From: Rhodocyclaceae bacterium
GTDB taxonomy: Bacteria; Pseudomonadota; Gammaproteobacteria; Burkholderiales; Rhodocyclaceae
Length of the DNA: 32,000 nucleotides
Assembly: GCA_018262775.1 (NCBI GenBank)
Contig: JADFDU010000033.1
Span: 1 to 32,000 of the forward strand
Direction of reading: 5' to 3'
This document shows, piece by piece, positions 2,980 to 13,506 of the stretch; the stretch's first letter is position 1, and each line of letters begins with the position of its first letter. The translations under genes were made by a program, and so were the position numbers. The notes below the pieces were generated by a model. It searched no databases, had not been told where the DNA came from, and worked only from the letters and a program-made list of their open reading frames with translations.

Positions 2980-3855
2980 ATGACTCAGGACTTGCATTCC
3001 CATGATCGATTGAATGCCTGGATCGAGCGCATCCGCGATCAGGAACTGCCCATCTTCGGCCGCACGGCCGAACAGATCCGCGCACTGACCGACAATGACA
3101 AGGCGGCAGTATCCCAGCTGGCTGATGCCATCCTCTGCGATCCCGGCATGACGGCCAAGCTGCTGCGCATTGCCAACAGCGTCATCTTCAACACTTCGGG
3201 CACCCAGATCACCACCATCAGCCGGGCCGTCCTGATGCTCGGCTTCAATATGGTGCGGCAGGTTGCCCTCTCGGTCGCCTTCGTGGACGCCTTGCTGCGT
3301 GGGCCGGTGCGGGAGCGGGTGTTGCGCGAGATGGGGCGGGCCTGCCATGCTGCCACACAGGCGCGTTGGCTGGCCTCGAGAAGGCATGACGTGCAGCCGG
3401 AGGAAGCCTTCATCGCCGCCTTGCTCTATCGCTTCGGCGAGATGGCTTTCTGGTGCCTTGCCGGCGAAACCGGCGACGAGCTTGAGGCAGCCCTGCGCCA
3501 AAATCCGAACACACCAGGCGAGGTTGAACAGTCTCTGCTCGGTTTCCGCCTGAACCAACTCACCATCGCCATGGTGCACGACTGGCGCGTCAGCCCGCTG
3601 TTGCAAAGCATCCTCAAGGGCACCTATCCAAGGCGTTCGCGCGAGCAGGCCGTAGTGCTCGCCTTCCGCCTGGCCGAGGATTCCGAGAACGGCTGGCACA
3701 GCGAGCGTGCCCGTGCCCGGCTGAAGGATGTCGCCGAGTACCTGCAGCAGCCGCTCGAAGAAATTGCCGGCCCGGTGATGAAGAACGCCATCGATGCGGC
3801 TGCCATCGCCGAGTGCTACGGAGCGGGCAGCGCAGTGCGCTTCATTCCGCAGTAG
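2980..3855 (+). CDS. HDOD domain-containing signalling protein
   Basis: 291-aa ORF 21 nt after secA. The N-terminal [14 protein letters not shown]...[22 protein letters not shown] pattern is typical of HDOD domains. No other domain recognised. Confidence 0.75.
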
Positions 3856-3910: not shown

Positions 3911-5137
3911 ATGCCCGTCAACCTGAAGCCGCCCGTCGCCGCACAACTCCTGCCCGTCCCGGGTGTCGCCCTCGGCATTGCCCGGGCCGGCATCCGCAAG
4001 GCCAATCGCCGCGACCTGCTGCTGATCCGCCTCGACGAAGGGGCCGCCGTCGCCGGCGTGTTTACGCAGAACCGCTTTTGCGCCGCGCCGGTCATCGTCT
4101 GCCGCGAGCACCTGGAAGGCACCGGCATTCGCGCGCTTGTCGTCAACACCGGTATCGCCAACGCCGGCACTGGCGCGCCCGGCATGCAGGCGGCGCGCGA
4201 CACCTGCGCCGCCGCGGCGCGGCTGCTCGGTTGCGCGCCACAGCAGGTGCTGCCGTTTTCCACCGGCGTCATCATGGAGCCGCTGCCCGTCGAACGCCTT
4301 GTGGCGGGGCTGCCGGCCTGCGTGGCTGATTTGCGCGAGAGCAACTGGGACGCCGCCGCCGAGGCCATCATGACCACCGACACCCTGCCCAAGGCGGTTT
4401 CGCGGAAAGTCAGCCTCGGCGGTACGGCGGTCACGATCACCGGCATCGCCAAAGGCGCCGGCATGATCCGCCCCAACATGGCCACCATGCTCGGCTTCGT
4501 CGCCACGGATGCCTCGGTAGCGCAGCCTGTATTGGAACAACTCGTGCGCGAGGCGGCCGACGCCTCTTTCAACTGCATCACGGTGGATGGCGACACCTCG
4601 ACCAACGATTCCTTCATGCTCATCGCCAGCGGGCGGGCGGGCAATGCACCGATCGCCGATGTCGCCTCCGAGGGCTATGCTGCGCTGAAGGAAGCCGTCA
4701 CCGCCGTGGCGGCGGAACTCGCCCAGGCCATCGTCCGCGACGGCGAGGGTGCCACCAAGTTCATTACCGTCGCCGTTCAGGGCGGCCGCGACATCGCCGA
4801 ATGCAAGGCCGTCGGCTACGCCATCGGCCATTCGCCGCTGGTGAAGACCGCCTTCTTCGCTTCCGATCCCAACCTCGGCCGCATCCTCGCCGCCATCGGC
4901 AACGCCGGCATTGCCGACCTCGACGTCGCGCGCTTGAAGCTCTGGCTTGATGAGGTACTGGTGGCCGAAAACGGCGGGCCTGCGGCGAGCTATCGCGAGG
5001 GGGAGGGCGCGCGGGTGATGAAACAGGAGGAGATCACGGTGCGCATCGATCTCGCCCGCGGCGATGCGCAGGCTACCGTGTGGACCTGCGACTTTTCCTA
5101 CGACTACGTGAAGATCAACGCGGATTACCGCAGTTGA
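3911..5137 (+). CDS. argJ: Bifunctional ornithine acetyltransferase / N-acetylglutamate synthase ArgJ
   Basis: ATG 3911 (MPVNLKP...) preferred over the upstream in-frame start at 3794. IMTTDT motif, self-cleavage region [15 protein letters not shown]-terminal INADYRS. Confidence 0.92.
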
Positions 5138-5247
5138 ACATTGCCCCTCGGCACCCGCCCGGCCGCCCGAAGGGCGCTGAGCGCCCCCTCGGGGGGCAGC
5201 GAACGAAGTGAGCGTGGGGGTCGGTCATATTAGTCAGGCTTGATCAG

Positions 5248-5631
5248 TCAATGCAGCACGCGCGGCATGGCGAGGGTGAACTCCGCCACCGATGCCTCGA
5301 ACTGCGCGCCGTCCTCCGCCGTCATCTGGAAGCTGCCGCGCATGGTGCCGACAGGCGTGGTGAGGACACAGCCGCTGGTGTATTCGAAACTCTCGTCGGG
5401 CTTGAGTAGGGGCTGGTGGCCGACCACGCCGAGGCCGCGCACTTCCTGCACGTGCGACTCGGCATCCGTGATGACCCAGTGACGTGAAATCAGCTGCGCC
5501 GCGATGGTGCCGGTGTTGCGGATGGTGATGTTGTAGGCGAAGACATAGCGCCCGTCCTGCGGGTCCGACTGGTCGGCCAGGTACTGGGTTTCCGCCGTGA
5601 CGCGGATCTCGTATTTAATGCTTTCCGCCAT
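5248..5631 (-). CDS. apaG: ApaG (DUF525) protein
   Basis: 127 aa. RYVFAYNITIRNTG...GVVGHQPLLKPDESFEYTSGCVLTTPVGTMRGSFQM aligns closely with remembered E. coli ApaG. Confidence 0.88.
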   Translation of the reverse strand: MAESIKYEIRVTAETQYLADQSDPQDGRYVFAYNITIRNTGTIAAQLISRHWVITDAESHVQEVRGLGVVGHQPLLKPDESFEYTSGCVLTTPVGTMRGSFQMTAEDGAQFEASVAEFTLAMPRVLH

Positions 5632-5744
5632 GCGGCCATTATAGGGGCGTGGGGGAGAAGCCGGCTTATGGGGGCCATAATTTCTTTTAGCCGGCGATGG
5701 GTTCGATTGCGTTTAAAATCAGAATCATCATAGGGGGAATCGCC

Positions 5745-6428
5745 ATGACCTACCGCATTGCACCGAGCATCCTCTCCGCCAACTTCGCCAAGTTGGGCGA
5801 GGAGGTGGACAATGTCCTTAAGTCCGGCGCCGACATCGTGCACTTCGACGTCATGGATAATCATTACGTGCCGAACCTGACCATCGGCCCGCTGGTCTGC
5901 GAGGCCCTGCGCAAGCACGGCGTCACCGCGCCCATCGACGTACACTTGATGGTGAAGCCGGTGGACCGCATCATTCCCGACTTCGCCAAGGCGGGTGCCA
6001 CCTACATCACCTTCCACCCGGAGGCTTCCGAGCACATCGACCGCACCATCGGCCTGATCCGCGAATCCGGCTGCAAGCCTGGCTTGGTGTTCAACCCGGC
6101 GACGCCGCTCGACGTGCTGGAATGGACGCTCGACAAGCTCGACATGGTGCTGCTGATGTCGGTGAACCCCGGCTTCGGCGGCCAGAAATTCATTCCCTAC
6201 GTCCTCGACAAGGCGCGCAAGGTGCGCCAGATGATCGAGGCGCGTGGCCTCGACGTCAGCCTGGAGATCGACGGTGGCGTTGGCCCGGCCAACATCTGTG
6301 AGGTGGCACAGGCCGGCGTTGACACCTTCGTCGCCGGCTCCGCCGTTTTCGGCGCCGGCAAGGACGGCGACCCGCAGCGCTACAACACCATCATCGCCTC
6401 CCTGCGCGCCGAACTGGCGAAGGTTTGA
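5745..6428 (+). CDS. rpe: Ribulose-phosphate 3-epimerase
   Basis: ATG 5745 ([21 protein letters not shown]). Motifs [14 protein letters not shown] and [13 protein letters not shown]. Divergent from apaG. Confidence 0.93.
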
Positions 6429-7105
6429 TGGCCTTGCCGATACGCGCAGTCCTCATCGACCTCGACGGCACACTGCTCGACACCGTTCCCGATCTCGCCG
6501 ACGCGGCCAACGCCATGCTCGCCGAGTTGGGGCGGCTGACTTTGCCGGTCGACACCATCCGCGAATTCGTCGGCAAGGGAATCCCAAACCTCGTTGGCCG
6601 CTGCCTCGGCTATCCGGGCGAATCGAATGCGCCGGATGCCCTCGAAGCGCTGGCCGTTTTCAAGCGCCATTACGCCGCCGTCAATGGCCGCAACACGCGC
6701 ATCTACCCCGGTGTGATTGAGGGCCTTGAAGCCATGCGCGCCGCCGGCCTGAAGACCGCTTGCGTCACCAACAAGGCCGCCGCCTTTACCGGCCCCCTGC
6801 TCGAAACCACCGGCCTGTCCGCACTCCTCGACATGACGGTGAGCGGCGACACCCTGGCGGAAAAGAAGCCGCACCCGCTGCCTTTCCTGCACCTCTGCGA
6901 ACGCTTCGGCATCGCCCCCGCTGAGGCGCTGGTCATCGGCGATTCGCGCAACGATGTCGCCGGCGCGCGCGCGGCGGGTTGCCCGGTGGTCTGCGTGCCC
7001 TATGGCTACAGCGAAGGCGAGGATGTGCGCGATCTCGGTGCCGATGCTATAGTGGGCACCCTCGAGGAGGTAGCCAGGTTGGCCATTCAGGCCGGGTGCC
7101 AATGA
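6428..7105 (+). CDS. gph: Phosphoglycolate phosphatase (HAD superfamily)
   Basis: ATG 6428 overlaps the rpe stop (TGATG). HAD motif I LIDLDGTLLDT, later KKPHP and GDSRNDV motifs. Classic rpe-gph pairing. Confidence 0.85.
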   Translation: MALPIRAVLIDLDGTLLDTVPDLADAANAMLAELGRLTLPVDTIREFVGKGIPNLVGRCLGYPGESNAPDALEALAVFKRHYAAVNGRNTRIYPGVIEGLEAMRAAGLKTACVTNKAAAFTGPLLETTGLSALLDMTVSGDTLAEKKPHPLPFLHLCERFGIAPAEALVIGDSRNDVAGARAAGCPVVCVPYGYSEGEDVRDLGADAIVGTLEEVARLAIQAGCQ

Positions 7106-7371: not shown

Positions 7372-8859
7372 ATGATGACCGAAGCCGCATTCAACGCGTT
7401 GGCCGCGCAGGGCTATAACCGTATTCCGGTGACCCTGGAAACCTTCGCCGACCTCGATACCCCCCTTTCGATCTACCTCAAGCTGGCCACTGGTAACAGT
7501 GGCGCCTATACCTACCTGCTCGAGTCCGTGCAAGGTGGCGAGCGCTTCGGCCGCTATTCCTTCATCGGCCTGTCCGCGCCGACGCGCATCGCCGCCTATG
7601 GCCGCGACGTCATGGTGCTCACCGGCCACCGCATCGCCGAGCGGCGCGACGATTGTGATCCGCTCGCCTTCGTCGGCGAGTACATGGCGCGCTTCCGGCT
7701 CGCGCCGCGCGCCGGCCTGCCGCGCTTCTGCGGCGGCCTCGTCGGCTGCTTCGGCTACGACACCGTGCACTACATCGAGCCGAAGCTGGCAAAGACGCAA
7801 AAGCCCGACGCGCTCGGCACGCCCGACGTGCTGCTGCTCCTCTCCGAGGAAATTGCCGTTGTCGACAACCTCTCCGGCAAGCTGACCCTGGTGGTGTATG
7901 CCGAGCCCGGCGTGCCCGGCGCCTTCAAGCGCGCCCAGACGCGGCTGAAGGAACTGCTGGTGCGGCTGCGTGAACCCGTGGCCATTCCCCCCGAACAGCC
8001 CGTTGCGTCGCAGGCGGCTGTCTCTTCATTCGGCGAGGAACCCTTCAAGCAGGCCGTGGCGCGCGCCAAGCAATACATCGTCGACGGCGACATCATGCAG
8101 GTGGTGCTCTCGCAGCGCATGTCGAAACCCTTCGCCGCCACGCCGCTGGCGCTCTACCGCGCGCTGCGCACCCTCAATCCCTCGCCCTACATGTTCTACT
8201 TCGACTTCGAGGACTTCCACGTCGTCGGCGCCTCGCCGGAGATCCTCGTTCGCCTGGAGGACGGCAGCGTCACCCTGCGGCCGATCGCCGGCACGCGTCG
8301 GCGCGGCAAGACGGTCGAGGAAGACGAGGCCCTCGCCGCCGAACTGCTCACCGACGAAAAGGAACGCGCCGAGCACCTCATGCTGCTCGACCTCGGCCGC
8401 AACGACGTCGGCCGCGTGGCGCAGACCGGCAGCGTCAAGGTGACCGAGCAGTTCGTCATCGAGCGCTACTCGCACGTGATGCACATCGTCTCCAGCGTCG
8501 AAGGCAGGCTGAAGCCCGAGCTGGATGCGCTAGCGGTGCTGCGCGCCACCTTCCCCGCCGGCACGGTGTCCGGTGCGCCCAAAGTGCGGGCGATGGAGGT
8601 CATTGACGAGCTGGAGCCGGTCAAGCGCGGCCTCTACGCCGGCGCCGTCGGCTACCTCGGCTTCCACGGCGACATGGACCTCGCCATCGCCATCCGCACC
8701 GCCGTCGTCAAGGACGGCCACATCCACGTCCAAGCCGGCGCCGGCATCGTCGCCGATTCCGACCCGGCCGCGGAATGGCAGGAGACGCAGAGCAAGGCCC
8801 GCGCCCAACTGCGCGCCGCCGAAATGGCCGAGTCGGGCCTCGATACGCGCTTGGATTGA
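7372..8859 (+). CDS. trpE: Anthranilate synthase component I
   Basis: ATG 7372 preceded by GGAG (7366-7369). [28 protein letters not shown], and the C-terminal GAVGYLGF...AIRT...[10 protein letters not shown] chorismate-binding signature. Confidence 0.95.
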
Positions 8860-8860
8860 A

Positions 8861-9331
8861 CCGCATTCAACACAGAGGGCACAGAGGTACAGAGAACACA
8901 GAGATGGAAGACAATGTCCTTTCCGGTCAGGTGATTGGCGCCGCGATTGAAGTGCATCGGGTTCTGGGCCCGGGGCTGCTTGAGTCGGCCTATGAGCTGG
9001 CGCTGGAGCGAGAGCTCCGGCTGCTCGGGCTCGACGTTCTTCGCCAGGTGCCGGTCCCGCTTCAGTACAAAGGTGCGAACCTTGGGGACGGATTTCGCAT
9101 CGACATTCTCGTGAGCGGGTTGCTGCTGGTCGAGATCAAGGCAGTCGAACAGCTTGCGCCTTTGCACGAAGCCCAGCTATTGACCTATTTGCGCTTGACC
9201 GGCAAGCGGCATGGGTTGCTCATCAATTTCAACGTCTCGGCGCTCAAGAACGGGGTCAAACGGGTGGTAAATGGATACTAGATTTTTCTCTGTGATCTCT
9301 GTGCCTCCGTGTCCTCTGTGTTTAAAGAGGT
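8861..9331. mobile_element. CACAGAG-repeat palindromic element, cargo-bearing copy (arms 8861-8903 and 9282-9331 flank the GxxExxY gene)
   Basis: Left arm caaCACAGAGGgCACaGAGGtACAGAGAaCACAGAG. The reverse complement of the right arm is aaaCACAGAGGaCACgGAGGcACAGAGAtCACAGAG. The same arms occur back-to-back at 9910-10022 and 11078-11180. Confidence 0.6.
8904..9281 (+). CDS. GxxExxY family protein (PD-(D/E)xK nuclease fold)
   Basis: 125 aa from ATG 8904. GLLESAY is the GxxExxY motif. FRIDILV...LLLVEIKAV fits D...ExK nuclease catalytic spacing. In-frame TTG 8856 overlapping the trpE stop is an alternative start. Confidence 0.85.
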   Translation: MEDNVLSGQVIGAAIEVHRVLGPGLLESAYELALERELRLLGLDVLRQVPVPLQYKGANLGDGFRIDILVSGLLLVEIKAVEQLAPLHEAQLLTYLRLTGKRHGLLINFNVSALKNGVKRVVNGY

Positions 9332-9338
9332 TCCCCCC

Positions 9339-9902
9339 ATGCTCCTGATGATCGACAACTACGACTCCTTCACCTACAACCTGGTGCAGTATTTCGGCGA
9401 GCTGGATGAGGAGGTGCGCGTCTTCCGCAATGACGAAATTTCGGTTGAGGGCATTGTCGCGCTCAAGCCCGATCGCATCGTCGTCTCCCCCGGTCCCTGT
9501 TCGCCCGCCGAGGCCGGCATCTCGGTGGCGGTGATCCGGGCGTTTGCCGGCAAGGTTCCGTTGCTGGGCGTCTGCCTCGGCCACCAATGCATCGGCGCCG
9601 CTTTCGGCGGCAAGGTCGTGCATGCCCGCCAACTCATGCACGGCAAGACATCATTGGTGCAGCATGCCGGCGCCGGCGTTTTCCGCGACCTGCCGAATCC
9701 CTTCACCGCCACGCGCTACCACTCGCTCGCCATCGAGCGTGCCTCGCTGCCGGATTGCCTTGAAGTGACGGCGTGGACCGACGACGGCGAGATCATGGGC
9801 GTGCGCCATCGCGAATTCGCTGTGGAAGGCGTGCAGTTCCACCCCGAATCCATCCGCAGCGAGCACGGCCACCGACTGTTGAAGACTTTTTTAGAGACAT
9901 GA
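9339..9902 (+). CDS. trpG: Anthranilate synthase component II (glutamine amidotransferase)
   Basis: ATG 9339 ([18 protein letters not shown]). Catalytic GVCLGHQ and FHPES. AAGAGG at 9325-9330 lies inside the repeat arm. Confidence 0.93.
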
Positions 9903-9909
9903 ACCTTGA

Positions 9910-10022
9910 CCTCTTTCAACACAGAGAGCACAGAGGCACAGAGAACACAGAGAGAGAAACGGTTTTATTCAATGTTCTTCTCTGTGCCCTCTGTGTCCCC
10001 GTGTCCTCTGTGTTGAAAGAGG
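9910..10022. repeat. CACAGAG-repeat palindromic element, cargo-less copy (113 bp)
   Basis: cctctttcaaCACAGAGaGCACAGAGGCACAGAGAACACAGAG...loop...CTCTGTGcCCTCTGTGtCCCcGTGTCCTCTGTGttgaaagagg. Begins 8 nt after the trpG stop and ends 25 nt before the trpD ATG. Confidence 0.88.
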
Positions 10023-10047
10023 TTGCTTTTATTAGGGAGTCAAAATC

Positions 10048-11073
10048 ATGATCACCCCACAGGAAGCCCTGCAGCGCACCATCGAACACCGCGAGATCTT
10101 TCATGACGAGATGCTGCATCTCATGCGCCAGATCATGGGCGGCGAGATCACGCCGCTGATGGTCGCCGCCATCCTCACCGGTCTGCGCGTGAAGAAGGAA
10201 ACCATCGGCGAGATTTCTGCTGCCGCCAAAGTGATGCGCGACCTGTGCACTCGCGTCGACACGCCCCACAACCCCCACTTCGTCGATGTCGTCGGCACCG
10301 GCGGCGATGCGTCCCACACCTTCAACATCTCCACCGCCTCGGCTTTCGTCGCCGCCGCAGCGGGCGCCACCGTCGCCAAGCACGGCAACCGCGGCGTCTC
10401 GTCGAAGTCCGGCTCAGCCGACGTGCTGGAGGCGCTCGGCGCGAAGATCGACCTGGCCGCGCCGCAGGTAGCCGAGTGCATCCAGGCCACCGGCATCGGC
10501 TTCATGTTCGCCCCCAACCATCACCCGGCCATGAAGAACGTCGCCCCGGTACGACGCGAAATGGGCGTGCGCACCATCTTCAACATCCTCGGCCCGCTGA
10601 CCAATCCGGCCGGCGCACCGAACACCCTGATGGGCGTGTTTCATCCCGACCTCGTCGGCATCCAGGTGCGCGTCATGCGCGAACTGGGCGCCGACCACGT
10701 CCTGGTGGTGTGGGGCAAGGACGGCATGGACGAGATTTCGCTTGGCGCGGCGACTCTGGTCGGCGAACTCAAGGACGGCAAGATCACCGAGTACGAAATC
10801 CACCCCGAGGACTATGGCCTGCAGATGGTCTCCAACCGTGGCCTGCGCGTCGCCGACGCCACCGAGTCGAAGGAAATGGTGCTGGAGGCGCTCGCCAACA
10901 CGCCCGGCACGCCGCGCGAGATCGTCACCCTGAACGCCGGCGCGGCGCTCTATGCGGCGAACGTCGCCGATTCGGTCGCCGACGGCATCGTTCGCGCGCG
11001 AGAGGCCATCGCCAGCGGCGCGGCGCGCGCCAAGCTCGACGCGTTCGTCAATTACACGCGGCGGTTTACTTGA
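10048..11073 (+). CDS. trpD: Anthranilate phosphoribosyltransferase
   Basis: 341 aa. [17 protein letters not shown] and [21 protein letters not shown] signatures. Confidence 0.95.
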
Positions 11074-11077
11074 GAAA

Positions 11078-11180
11078 CTCTTTCAACACGGAGGGCACAG
11101 AGGCACAGAGGACACAGAGAAGAACTTTCTCTGGATGTTCTCTGTGCTCTCTGTGCCTCTGTGTTCTCTGTGTCAAAAGC
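11078..11180. repeat. CACAGAG-repeat palindromic element, second cargo-less copy (~103 bp)
   Basis: ctctttcaaCACgGAGGGCACAGAGGCACAGAGGACACAGAG...loop...CTCTGTGctCTCTGTGCCTCTGTGttCTCTGTGtcaaaagc. Begins 5 nt after the trpD stop and ends 14 nt before the trpC ATG. Confidence 0.88.
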
Positions 11181-11194
11181 GGTTAAGGCTCCCT

Positions 11195-12112
11195 ATGTCC
11201 GACATCCTGCAGAAAATTCTCGCGGTAAAGCACGAGGAAATCGCCGCCGCGCAGGCAAAAAAGCCGCTCGCCGCCCTGCGCGCCGAGGCCGATGCGCAGT
11301 CGCTGCCGCGCGACTTCGTCGGCGCGATTCGTAAAAAAATCGGCACGAAAGTCAGCCTCGGCAACACGGCGAAATGCGCGGCGGTCATTGCCGAGATCAA
11401 GAAGGCCAGCCCCTCCAAGGGCGTCATCCGCGCCGATTTCCGCCCCGGCGAGATCGCCGCGTCCTATGCGGCCCATGGTGCTACCTGCCTGTCGGTGCTG
11501 ACAGACCGGCAGTTCTTCCAGGGCGCGCCGGAATACCTCGTCGAAGCACGCGCAGCCTGCGCGTTGCCGGTGCTGCGCAAGGATTTCATCATCGACGCCT
11601 ACCAGGTGGTCGAGGCGCGTGCGATGGGGGCTGACTGTATCCTGCTTATCGTCGCGGCCTTCCTCCCCCCTCACCCCAACCCTCTCCCCCGCGGGGGAGA
11701 GGGAGCAACAATCACCCCCTCTCCCCTCGGGGAGAGGGCAGGGGTGAGGGGGGCAGTCGCTCAAATGCGCGAACTCGAAACCCTCGCCCACGAATTCGGC
11801 ATGGCCGTACTGGTCGAGGCGCACGACGACGCCGAACTCGACCTCGCCCTAGCGCTCAAAACCCCGCTCATCGGCATCAACAACCGCAACCTGCGCACCT
11901 TTGCAGTCTCGCTACAGACGACCCTCGATCTGCTGGCACGCATCTCTGCCGATCGCATCGTCGTCACCGAGTCGGGCATCCTGGCGCCTGCCGACGTCAC
12001 CCTCATGCGCGGCCATGGCGTGAATGTCTTCCTCGTCGGCGAGGCCTTCATGCGTGCGCCCGACCCGGGTGCGGAACTGGCTCGGCTGTTCGAACAGGGG
12101 GATTCGTCATGA
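11195..12112 (+). CDS. trpC: Indole-3-glycerol phosphate synthase (carries an in-frame repeat insertion)
   Basis: ATG 11195 ([16 protein letters not shown]). [18 protein letters not shown] and [10 protein letters not shown] motifs. At 305 aa it is about 35-40 aa longer than typical TrpC. Confidence 0.92.
11665..11753. repeat. G/C-rich nested palindromic (REP-like) element embedded in the trpC reading frame
   Basis: Outer inverted repeat cccccctcacccc (11665-11677) / ggggtgagggggg (11741-11753). Two inner hairpins: ccctctcccc-cgcg-ggggagaggg and ccctctcccc-tc-ggggagaggg. Translates in frame as [29 protein letters not shown]. Confidence 0.8.
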
Positions 12113-12245
12113 CAGAGACCATCCCATTGAGTAGCGTGAGTCGCAGCGCACGGCCTGATTGATGGGTAGCTGATGGGTAGCAATTACGCAGTTGAACTCA
12201 TGCGGGCGTGGTGCCAGCTACCGCGTGGCTTGTCCTCGGTTTCAG

Positions 12246-12572
12246 CTACGCCAATCCCATCCAGACAGCCAAAGCGCGGCTCACGCGCAGGACCGTCTCG
12301 TCCTCAAGGCGTCCGAAAGCCTGGCCCAGTTTGTCGCGCCTGACGGATACGATCTTGTCTACCATCACTTGCGATACCTCGCGCAAGCCGTTTGCGGCGG
12401 AAGGTTCGACGGTAATGCGGAACAGCGGGGCGCTGCGGATTTCTCCAGTCAGCGGCGCCAGCGTCACGCTCGGGTGCGTTTCGTTGAAGAGATCGGATTG
12501 AATCACCAGCGCCGGCCGTGGCTTGCCAAGGTCGCCCTGCAGTGCGACCGCCACCAAGTCGCCGCGCCTCAT
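12246..12572 (-). CDS. mazF: Type II toxin, PemK/MazF family endoribonuclease
   Basis: ATG at 12572 (MRRGDLVAVALQGDLGKPRPALVIQSD...), 108 aa. RGD(L/I)...KxRPxxV(I) N-terminus typical of MazF/PemK. Start overlaps the upstream antitoxin stop by 4 nt. Confidence 0.85.
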   Translation of the reverse strand: MRRGDLVAVALQGDLGKPRPALVIQSDLFNETHPSVTLAPLTGEIRSAPLFRITVEPSAANGLREVSQVMVDKIVSVRRDKLGQAFGRLEDETVLRVSRALAVWMGLA

Positions 12573-12793
12573 TTCCAATCCTCGATATCCCTGAGGGTGG
12601 CATCCAGTTCGTCGAGGATGGTCTGTTCGGCCGCGTCGTTCGCCACCAGGAGGGATTGACGCCGGCATTCCTCGGCAAATTTCGGTGAGCGGGTATCCGG
12701 TACCCAAATCTGGATCGGCCTGAATCCCTGAGCGCGCATTTTGTCGCGGTAACGGCTGACGCTTTCCCGCGCGGGCTGAGACGAATTTCGCAT
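12569..12793 (-). CDS. mazE: MazE-family antitoxin (DUF3018-like)
   Basis: 74 aa. YRDKMRAQGFRPIQIWVPDTRSPKFAEECRRQSLLVA resembles the MazE-like/DUF3018 pattern. 4-nt overlap with the toxin gene. Confidence 0.72.
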   Translation of the reverse strand: MRNSSQPARESVSRYRDKMRAQGFRPIQIWVPDTRSPKFAEECRRQSLLVANDAAEQTILDELDATLRDIEDWK

Positions 12794-12908
12794 GGCATTT
12801 CCTTTGGTTATTCAGTTCATGCCATATTACATGAAATAAGGCATGAAGGAATCCTGCCGCATCTGGAAACCGTGGTCTGAGCTAGCCCGGTTTGATGGAA
12901 TATCCTTC

Positions 12909-13190
12909 TCAGCCGAAAAGCTCGCTATGAGAGCCAAGACGGGCCAGCCGCAGGGTGTCGCTGTCCGATTTGCGGTAGATCAGCAGTAAATCGGGCTTGA
13001 CGTGGCACTCACGGTAGCCAGCCCAATCGCCGCTCAAATCATGGTCGCGGTGTTTTGGTTCCAACGGCTGGCCGTTCGCCAGAGCCGCCAAGACCGGGAC
13101 CAGGTCAGCATCGAGTGTTGTCCGGTGCTGACCTTTCGCCTCGCGCTTGTAATCTCGCTTGAATGCCGTTGAGCGGTCAATCGTCCGCAT
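12909..13190 (-). CDS. yafQ: Type II toxin, YafQ/RelE family mRNA interferase
   Basis: 93 aa. DHDLSGDWAGYRECHVKPDLLLIYRK...RLGSHSELFG parallels E. coli YafQ DHPLQGSWKGYRDAHVEPDWILIYK...RTGTHAALFG. Confidence 0.87.
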   Translation of the reverse strand: MRTIDRSTAFKRDYKREAKGQHRTTLDADLVPVLAALANGQPLEPKHRDHDLSGDWAGYRECHVKPDLLLIYRKSDSDTLRLARLGSHSELFG

Positions 13191-13443
13191 GCAAGTCAGC
13201 CATTAGTGCCTCAATGCCGGCAAAGCGCTTGCCCTTTCCGGCTTCAAGCTCAGCAATGGCCTTGCGGGTGGTCGCGTTCGGTACCTTGACCTCGAATGGC
13301 AAGCGGCGCTCGTCTGCTACGCGCAGCATCAGCAAGCGGATGGCGTCAGAAATGGACAAGCCCATCGCCTCCAGCGCATCGGCAGCGCGTTCCTTGGTGG
13401 CGGTATCAATGCGGGCGCGAACGTAGGTGTCGGCGGTGCTCAT
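13177..13443 (-). CDS. dinJ: RelB/DinJ family antitoxin
   Basis: ATG at 13443 (MSTADTYVRARIDTATKERAADALEAMGLSISDAIRLLM) parallels DinJ FVRARIDEDLKNQAADVLAGMGLTISDLVR. 14-nt overlap with yafQ. Confidence 0.87.
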   Translation of the reverse strand: MSTADTYVRARIDTATKERAADALEAMGLSISDAIRLLMLRVADERRLPFEVKVPNATTRKAIAELEAGKGKRFAGIEALMADLHADD

Positions 13444-13477
13444 GATGAGTTTCTCCCTAGGGGGTTCTTGAATTTCA

Positions 13478-13506
13478 ATTGTAGTCACAACGAGACCACG
13501 GCGCAA
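13478..13506 (-). promoter_or_regulatory. Candidate sigma70 promoter/operator of dinJ-yafQ
   Basis: On the minus strand: TTGCGC (13506-13501), 17 nt, TACAAT (13483-13478). The spacer/-10 contains the palindrome TTGTgactACAA, a plausible autoregulatory operator. Confidence 0.35.

Follow-up and report, generated by a model that had tools for sequence, protein, structure and literature searches.

Among the short palindromic repeats of bacteria, BoxC is said to go back to Bachellier in the 1990s and the PIT element to Hoyne and Maher in 2000, and the REPIN concept was reportedly introduced by Bertels and Rainey in 2011. Here, we analyse a repeat element of the BoxC kind lying in frame inside trpC, the gene for indole-3-glycerol-phosphate synthase (IGPS), in a 32-kb window (the whole stretch of DNA analysed, positions 1 to 32,000 of contig JADFDU010000033.1, assembly GCA_018262775.1, Rhodocyclaceae bacterium), to which an earlier note on the bare sequence had drawn attention. 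The “intrastrand triplex motif” TMECO of Holder et al. (2015) is identical with the earlier BoxC (1990s) and PIT element (2000); 3610 copies were counted in 262 genomes of proteobacteria, and E. coli K-12 has 23 (PMC4666352). E. coli copies are always intergenic and five pairs are inverted, the triplex was formed in vitro and unseen in vivo, TMECO-bearing loci are more variable or rearranged among E. coli strains, and earlier work cited there found neither promoter nor terminator activity in PIT elements (PMC4666352). Repeats inside genes are known from the Rickettsia palindromic elements, which lie in frame in functional genes, are translated and occupy fold-compatible positions (Ogata et al. 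2000, 2002; PMC10969869), and from repetitive extragenic palindromic (REP) sequences with GTAG or CGTC tags, which occur inside genes, often repair genes, of many species including Thauera (Di Nocera et al. 2013; PMC3733652).

The trpC element resembles the Rickettsia palindromic elements in being a palindromic repeat that sits in frame at a fold-compatible position, and differs from them in sequence family and host (here a betaproteobacterium, Rhodocyclaceae being closest); the Rickettsia elements, compared by description only, are about 100-150 bp long and have no known partner gene. With BoxC/PIT/TMECO it shares the architecture of C stem, loop, G stem, 3-nt loop and second G stem, together with the inverted pairing and the local genomic variability that are seen both in E. 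coli and at trpC. Whereas the E. coli copies are intergenic and were described as having no link to mobile elements, the trpC copy is in frame in an essential biosynthetic gene, its site turns over between near-identical alleles, and the repeat is linked here to DUF559 nuclease genes. We consider it probable that the element is an inverted BoxC pair, tolerated in a loop of TrpC, whose cassette is exchanged by short-patch recombination and which represents the cargo-less form of a DUF559 element.

The trpC insert and its repeat family

The trpC product matches IGPS in Pfam at 3.5e-83, in two stretches, and the P. aeruginosa IGPS structure 6y88 in the Protein Data Bank (PDB) at 2e-79. The alignments with IGPS structures and with Pfam split the query into residues 3-156 and 191-301, which in 6y88 correspond to chain residues 5-150 and 155-266; since just four residues lie between the two parts of 6y88, about 30 residues are extra in the window protein. 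This excess, and a stop-free read-through, had already been remarked on in the earlier note, and the alignment with orthologues that it proposed delimits the insert to 90 nt relative to empty alleles (Table 1). The note had also placed the extra residues between a beta strand and the following helix; in an AlphaFold2 model built on 93 homologues (mean predicted local distance difference test score, pLDDT, 89) the (beta-alpha)8 barrel is complete and the insert comes after the fourth strand (residues 148-152), that is, in the beta4-alpha4 loop. The pLDDT falls below 50 at residues 164-176, and the model shows residues 177-186 lengthening helix alpha4 at its N-terminal side; the insert, in a surface loop, is predicted to be mostly disordered on a TIM barrel that is otherwise modelled with confidence. 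The catalytic residues E67, K69, K129, E208, N229/N230, E259 and S260 are present, and the trpC flanks, compared with locus L089 (comparison loci carry L numbers), give a synonymous divergence (dS) of 0.49 and a nonsynonymous-to-synonymous ratio (dN/dS) of 0.21, which indicates a gene under purifying selection. The barrel model, the catalytic residues and this ratio together agree with the suggestion that the insert is tolerated. A second variable stretch of the protein, at residues about 50-61 (window 11342-11377), is 8-12 residues longer than in 6y88 and many homologues and has pLDDT below 50 at residues 52-55.

The symmetry of the element, recognized from the letters in the earlier note, is upheld by inverted arms of 39 nt, 11665-11703 and 11715-11753, which show 82% complementarity across an 11-nt spacing and each enclose a perfect hairpin. 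Single-stranded, the element folds at -82 kcal/mol, compared with -53.2 +/- 4.2 for 200 dinucleotide shuffles (z -6.9), none of which folds as well. Words resembling CCCTCTCCCC occur nine times in the 32-kb window (2.25 expected), and six of the nine lie inside the element. The published TMECO pattern, CCCTCNCCC N3-6 GGGNGAGGG N3 GGGNGAGGG, is matched exactly twice, once on each strand, by two inverted units 13 nt apart; 100 shuffles gave 0 matches, and 0 are expected by chance. Judged by its sequence, the element is therefore no new repeat: two triplex-motif units of the BoxC/PIT/TMECO family form an inverted pair, each unit comprising a C-rich/G-rich hairpin and a third, G-rich arm. On the basis of this match, what had been described as an outer inverted repeat is the third (triplex) arm of each unit, and the inner hairpins are the duplex parts. 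The sequence is compatible with a triplex, G stem 2 mirroring G stem 1 to give G·G and A·A or T·A triplets.

The frame of the insert has no stop and encodes about 30 Pro/Gly-rich residues; three of the six reading frames are open, and translation would be expected because the frame is open and the length a multiple of three. A homologue search with the insert peptide was uninformative, with 20 candidates and two weak matches. The very stable predicted hairpin (-82 kcal/mol) could suggest an RNA or DNA structure that regulates trpC as a pause site, mRNA stabiliser or internal attenuator, or an insert that is skipped or removed before the protein is made; for the latter, there are precedents of translational bypass encoded by mobile elements (bioRxiv 10.1101/2022.08.31.505936). 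We regard this family of explanations as very unlikely. A terminator and promoter scan at the element gave nothing on the sense strand, where a U-tract terminator is missing, and PIT elements lack promoter or terminator activity (cited in PMC4666352). A scan of 8500-12500 against Rfam returned only sub-threshold matches to eukaryotic miRNA hairpins, which is noise of the miRNA-like kind and leaves no known RNA family in that region. Moreover, all variants seen stay in frame without stops, which neither bypass nor splicing would require.

Table 1. Positions of trpC and of the parts of its in-frame element in the window
Feature	Position	Strand	Description
trpC (indole-3-glycerol-phosphate synthase)	11195..12112	+	305 codons; last of the trpG-trpD-trpC run
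TTC codon, Phe156	11660..11662	+	Leu in empty alleles, Phe in all occupied alleles
In-frame insert, 90 nt / 30 codons	11663..11752	+	TrpC residues 157-186; bounds from empty alleles and the PDB/Pfam split
Left outer arm CCCCCCTCACCCC	11665..11677		complement of the third-strand G stem; pairs with 11741-11753
Left BoxC/PIT/TMECO unit	11668..11703	-	minus-strand read CCCTCTCCCCCGCGGGGGAGAGGGTTGGGGTGAGGG: C stem, loop, G stem 1, loop, G stem 2
Inner hairpin 1, CCCTCTCCCCCG/CGGGGGAGAGGG	11680..11703		perfect 12+12
Core AGCAACAATCA	11704..11714		11 nt, between both units
Right BoxC/PIT/TMECO unit	11717..11750	+	CCCTCTCCCCTCGGGGAGAGGGCAGGGGTGAGGG
Inner hairpin 2, CCCTCTCCCC-TC-GGGGAGAGGG	11717..11738		perfect 10+10
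Right outer arm GGGGTGAGGGGGG	11741..11753		

When one genome of each species was scanned for the unit's two-arm part, at least 120 loci were obtained, so that this part occurs in no fewer than 120 other genomes from various phyla, which among the matches listed include Proteobacteria, Planctomycetota, Verrucomicrobiota, Chloroflexota, Acidobacteriota, Omnitrophota and others. The architecture of the unit is constant across the scanned genomes and, again among the matches listed, about one-tenth of units form inverted pairs; inverted pairs are also found in L106, L187, L201 and L212. Units lie in frame in genes for LigA, UvrB, IspG, KsgA, DsbD and an ABC exporter, as confirmed by Pfam, and likely also in those for Mfd, VgrG, an Lhr-like helicase, AcrB and GlnE, so that in-frame units in housekeeping genes make up about 8% of the units sampled in other phyla (among the matches listed). 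The supposition that such in-frame elements are uncommon outside Rickettsia does not hold, given these six Pfam-confirmed proteins and the in-gene REPs already published for many species (PMC3733652). The earlier classification as a REP or a miniature inverted-repeat transposable element (MITE) stands in so far as the palindrome is repeated; it fails for a REP of the GTAG/CGTC kind, the match being to TMECO instead, and the element is not known to be a MITE driven by a transposase. The element shares with bacterial MITEs the terminal inverted repeats around a short core and the existence of longer, gene-carrying relatives, and differs in having no target-site duplication and in relatives that encode DUF559 and no known transposase.

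Allelic variation at one trpC codon

The site was examined in the 120 best TrpC matches, all from Rhodocyclaceae-like Betaproteobacteria; among the comparison loci, none of which is from the source genome, the best match is 90% identical. Half of these homologues (60/120) are empty and read AAL-DLP/ELP- (DNA GTCGCCGCGCTCGATTTGCCGCGCATG), 46 carry C/G-rich inserts of one, two or three units, 10 carry a CRSGFSPT...VGLKPDLQ insert whose DNA is a GTAG-tagged REP doublet, two carry about 200 residues including DUF559, and two carry another insert. Because Leu stands in the empty alleles and Phe in every occupied one, Phe156 marks the occupied allele class. In more distant Betaproteobacteria inserts also follow AAF, some of them non-palindromic (L012, L022, L032, L033), and a metagenome scan with TrpC returned mostly distant, empty alleles among the matches listed, with a few occupied ones. 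The claim that the repeat had landed in a coding region is correct as to its in-frame position; a simple landing in this genome is contradicted by occupation of the same codon in many Rhodocyclaceae and other Betaproteobacteria, in each case after a change from Leu to Phe, and by gain, loss, shortening or replacement of the cassette between near-identical alleles.

Turnover at this codon is seen between close relatives. In a neighbour-joining tree of the short TrpC protein with the insert masked, the insert classes are interleaved. The syntenic loci L089/L090 (Ca. Desulfobacillus denitrificans), with two units, and L091/L092, which are empty, have trpC genes about 99% identical that differ solely in the 87-nt cassette, the adjoining codons (GCG CTC GAT TTG CCG CGC in L091/L092 versus GCC TTC CAG ... 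GCG GTC GCG CAA in L089/L090) and one codon five positions downstream. The trpC DNA of L213 and L214 is identical save codon 2 and the cassette, where one triplex-motif unit in the former corresponds to a REP doublet in the latter. L006 and L009 hold a single unit equal to the right half of the window element and retain the third arm CA-GGGG[T/A]GAGGGGG plus the CGCG loop of hairpin 1. In L014, at 3474-3548, the trpC insert at the same codon belongs to another family of hairpins, with CCCCCTTTATCAAGGGGG / CCCCCTTGATAAAGGGGG as a perfect inverted repeat of 18 nt.

Across 477 kb of trpC-centred loci, such hairpins are nearly confined to the trpC codon site, and shared occupancy is therefore best read as an inherited or transferred allele and not as repeated random hits. 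A random rain of an abundant repeat was rejected on the same ground, the hairpins being near-absent from the 477 kb around trpC except at this codon.

The GTAG doublets bear on a further explanation, namely that the element is a REP or REPIN of the kind mobilised by RAYT (REP-associated tyrosine transposase) and was moved into trpC by a tyrosine (Y1) transposase. GTAG-tagged doublets do occupy the same codon in L008 and L214, and L089, L213 and L214 have Y1_Tnp genes a few kb away from trpC. Nevertheless, 11660-11757 has neither a GTAG nor a CGTC tag and matches the TMECO pattern instead, and the 32-kb window contains no Y1_Tnp homologue by tblastn and no GTAG REP, which makes this origin highly improbable for the window element. 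As regards general design, the likeness to REP/REPIN-RAYT systems extends to short palindromic repeats that are often inverted doublets and sometimes lie inside genes, including repair genes, to a single-gene partner with many cargo-less copies, and to the GTAG doublet at the same trpC codon in some relatives; the differences are the missing tag and a candidate partner that is a PD-(D/E)xK nuclease and not a Y1 transposase. The RAYT-like Y1_Tnp genes are located downstream of trpC (L089 19489-20154, L213 6819-6858, L214 5730-6428), and that of L089 is missing from the otherwise collinear L090; the GTAG REP doublets found in the trpC genes of L008 and L214 may have their partner in such genes.

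The substitution pattern concerns the level at which the insert is maintained. Between the window and L089 the insert has dS 0.13 and dN/dS 0.8; its stems are invariant except for one A/T difference mirrored in both outer arms (A/T, T/A), and the loops and core differ. Similarly, between L001 and L003, two occupied metagenome loci, trpC shows dS 0.52-0.66 and dN/dS 0.10-0.19, compared with dS 0.04 and dN/dS about 1 for the repeat-encoded parts. The low dS of the insert and the co-variation of its stems show that the repeat is kept or homogenised as DNA and not as protein. These data also address the view that this lineage of TrpC has here a protein loop that is functional or ancestral, with the palindrome incidental. 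In its favour, the loop is extended in many relatives, in every case following Phe, and the distant inserts of L012, L022, L032 and L033 are no longer palindromic; however, the view is at odds with a dN/dS of about 0.8-1 and DNA better conserved than the synonymous sites of the flanks, with presence/absence and full replacement at 99-100% flanking identity, with the same DNA motif in unrelated genes and phyla, and with the predicted disorder of the loop, and we judge it the least probable of the explanations considered.

DUF559 nuclease genes and the repeat

Three metagenome contigs from three samples (L001, L002, L003), representing two variants, carry a DUF559/MTES_1575 domain at the same trpC codon. 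Their DUF559-coding DNA, about 420-550 nt, lies between 39-nt terminal inverted repeats that are composed of outer arm and hairpin, as in the window element, and, in L001 and L003, occupies the place of the window's 11-nt core. The domain is in the TrpC frame without a stop and has a dN/dS of 0.10 (L001 vs L003), like TrpC itself; by this ratio, it is under purifying selection. AlphaFold2 models barrel and nuclease domain both with confidence, and the repeat-encoded peptides as low-confidence linkers. The closest solved relative of the domain is 3HRL, an “endonuclease-like protein” (E 1e-26), and the comparison with the Vsr-like homing endonuclease I-Bth0305I (3R3P) was not significant (E 0.44). 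An intein, intron or bypass was rejected for these trpC genes on account of the kept frame, the purifying selection on the nuclease in the TrpC frame and the lack of a Hint domain: Pfam finds IGPS, DUF559 and MTES_1575 alone in P0118 and P0120, the insert of P0120 shows DUF559 and MTES_1575 and no Hint/intein domain, and AlphaFold2 gives a plain domain insertion with disordered linkers. The bypass or removal of the insert considered above likewise finds no encouragement in these proteins.

The pairing of DUF559 with the repeat recurs outside trpC. In L014, the spacer between trpG and trpD is taken up by a 124-codon DUF559 gene with BoxC-type units on either side as inverted repeats of 41 nt; in L220, a DUF559 gene lies between perfect 22-nt inverted repeats and its open reading frame (ORF) continues into SdhE; and in L179 and L216 a unit is found at the 3' end of the DUF559 ORF. 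Repeat-encoded Pro/Gly tails were present in 70 of 117 close DUF559 homologues, compared with 0 of 120 in the TrpC control. Separately, in L158 (Omnitrophota; 3963-5552, 5552-6739) a DUF559 ORF runs without a stop into an rseP-like gene, and the neighbouring ispG carries an in-frame unit.

E. coli K-12 provides an additional case. The stop codon of ycjD, a DUF559 gene, lies inside a degenerate unit, and downstream of ycjD (L215; NC_000913.3 1351195-1351430) about 45 nt from the 3' end of ycjD are duplicated ahead of a canonical type-A TMECO. Of 5426 complete E. coli genomes, 3321 retain the ycjD region, and the number of TMECO-like places per genome, 1 to 27, tracks the presence of this region: among 60 E. 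coli genomes sampled at even spacing, the median was 18 with the region and 4 without it (Mann-Whitney p 6e-10).

The arrangement in trpC invites comparison with Vsr-like (EDxHD) homing endonucleases such as I-Bth0305I and with the intronless homing of free-standing nuclease genes (PMC2677866, PMC3239194). The nuclease is of the Vsr-like fold and, as in intronless homing, homologous genes are occupied at one site, flanking co-conversion tracts are short, and there are cargo-less remnants that are degenerate; specifically, the occupied alleles share their site, and the flanking changes amount to a few codons in genes 99-100% identical. Unlike those systems, there is no intron or intein and the nuclease domain is read through in frame with repeat-encoded linkers; the window copy is without a nuclease ORF, which is found at the same codon in L001, L002 and L003. 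Cleavage of the empty site by DUF559 is putative.

Proposed origin of the element and its significance

In the explanation we favour, the occupied trpC allele would be old and common to many Betaproteobacteria, and the two-unit form would be a deletion derivative of an element with a DUF559 (Vsr-like, PD-(D/E)xK) gene between like terminal units. The insert would do nothing for TrpC and may persist because Pro/Gly-rich linker peptides in the beta4-alpha4 loop are harmless. Between close relatives, the cassette and a few flanking bases would be exchanged, shortened, deleted or replaced via short-patch recombination, most likely triggered by breaks at the repeat that lead to break-induced gene conversion. 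That such breaks come from a DUF559 nuclease acting in trans, in a homing-like gene conversion, is conceivable and falls only a little short of an even chance; the other source considered, somewhat less probable, is stalling of replication by the structure of the repeat itself, as in the published instability model of Holder et al. A broader and somewhat more tentative proposal is that a selfish element with a DUF559 (YcjD-type, Vsr-like) gene, spread by nuclease-stimulated short-patch conversion, may have BoxC/PIT/TMECO repeats in general as its terminal repeats and as its derivatives without cargo. With repeats that yield harmless Pro/Gly linkers on translation, such an element could live in frame inside essential genes, and its spread between alleles would amount to homing without an intron or intein. 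Our statements on mobility rest on comparative patterns.

Under this selfish-element proposal, PDDEXK_3 genes with CACAGAG-type inverted repeats would be a second family of the same design. In the window operon, where trpC is preceded by trpG (9309-9902) and trpD (10048-11073), a PDDEXK_3 nuclease ORF at 8775-9281 lies between trpE and trpG (Pfam 1.9e-39) and has on both sides CACAGAGG-type words that form inverted repeats of 56 nt (8849-8904, 9287-9342), and cargo-less inverted pairs of this repeat occupy the trpG-trpD spacer (9909-10023) and the trpD-trpC spacer (11075-11184). The CACAGAG-type palindrome of the latter spacer is present in L213 (2895-3000) and absent from L214, where trpD and trpC overlap at 2541-2544; given the identical trpC, this repeat too is polymorphic at the strain level. 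In the Gallionellaceae sdh operon of L220, sdhA and sdhB are separated by a PDDEXK_3 gene that has inverted repeats of 33 nt, and the DUF559 gene with 22-nt repeats sits between sdhB and gltA (the two stretches being 176-621 and 1334-2037). Downstream of trpC, on the window's minus strand at 12246-13506, small ORFs resemble toxin-antitoxin pairs as judged by eye and synteny (PemK/MazF-like, 12246-12707; RelE-like, 12909-13190, with a partner at 13177-13506); relatives have PemK/MazE, PIN, HicA and HepT/Polbeta modules in this place.

Several points weigh against the favoured explanation. Neither a DUF559 gene nor a second copy of the element was found elsewhere in the 32-kb window, no direct repeat that would mark a target-site duplication flanks the insert when occupied and empty alleles are compared, and its translation is presumed from the open frame. 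The universal Phe fits one ancient insertion followed by ordinary recombination, for which no dedicated nuclease is needed. A lone PD-(D/E)xK nuclease is unable to transpose DNA, and the mechanism of mobility is therefore conjectural. Holder et al. found TMECO to have no link to mobile elements and did not find the triplex in vivo (PMC4666352). The presence of ycjD follows phylogroup (A, B1 and C, replacing the eef operon; PMC12817139), so that few independent events stand behind the medians of 18 and 4 and the comparison is confounded. Finally, the DUF559-BoxC association is strong from the nuclease side only and weak from the repeat side, where a DUF559 ORF is touched by only 2 of the 132 units that were sampled from other genomes; this figure is expected under a large excess of cargo-less copies and is equally compatible with DUF559 genes lodging near repeats.

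A rival view takes the units as structure-driven fragile sites without a dedicated enzyme: replication would stall at the triplex or hairpin, slippage or recombination would mend the resulting breaks and by itself account for the turnover at trpC, and DUF559 genes would tend to lodge at such recombinogenic spots. The more frequent rearrangement of TMECO loci among E. coli strains, with no link to mobile elements found (Holder 2015; PMC4666352), fits this view, as do the 2/132 units adjoining a DUF559 gene and the resemblance of single-unit alleles to slippage deletions between direct repeats of the two-unit form. What it leaves unexplained is the conserved 20-22 nt unit sequence across phyla, the units in the ORF tails of 60% of DUF559 homologues and the inverted units that stand as true terminal repeats around DUF559 in L001, L014 and L220, and we hold it to be unlikely, though by no means negligible.

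As to what is new in the favoured explanation of a cargo-less DUF559 element, the repeat family is already known, as are in-frame palindromic repeats in kind, and the DUF559-BoxC link is the novel but unproven part. The searchable literature yielded no report of the BoxC family in frame in essential genes, of strain-level cassette turnover at one trpC codon, of an in-frame DUF559 domain insertion or of a DUF559-BoxC association, including that of ycjD in E. coli K-12, and no paper on DUF559 and ycjD that treats them as repeat partners.

Overall, the trpC site presents a natural series that runs from an empty site through one unit, two units and a foreign REP doublet to a whole nuclease domain, and it shows how insertions are tolerated in one loop of an essential TIM-barrel enzyme and how fast such a cassette turns over. 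For genome annotation, caution is advisable, since a Pro/Gly-rich loop of low complexity in a housekeeping protein can be a translated repeat. BoxC/PIT/TMECO ranks among the classic interspersed repeats of E. coli, and the very large DUF559 family has no known function; if the two were halves of one selfish element, both would receive an explanation, and one that is directly testable via ycjD of E. coli K-12.

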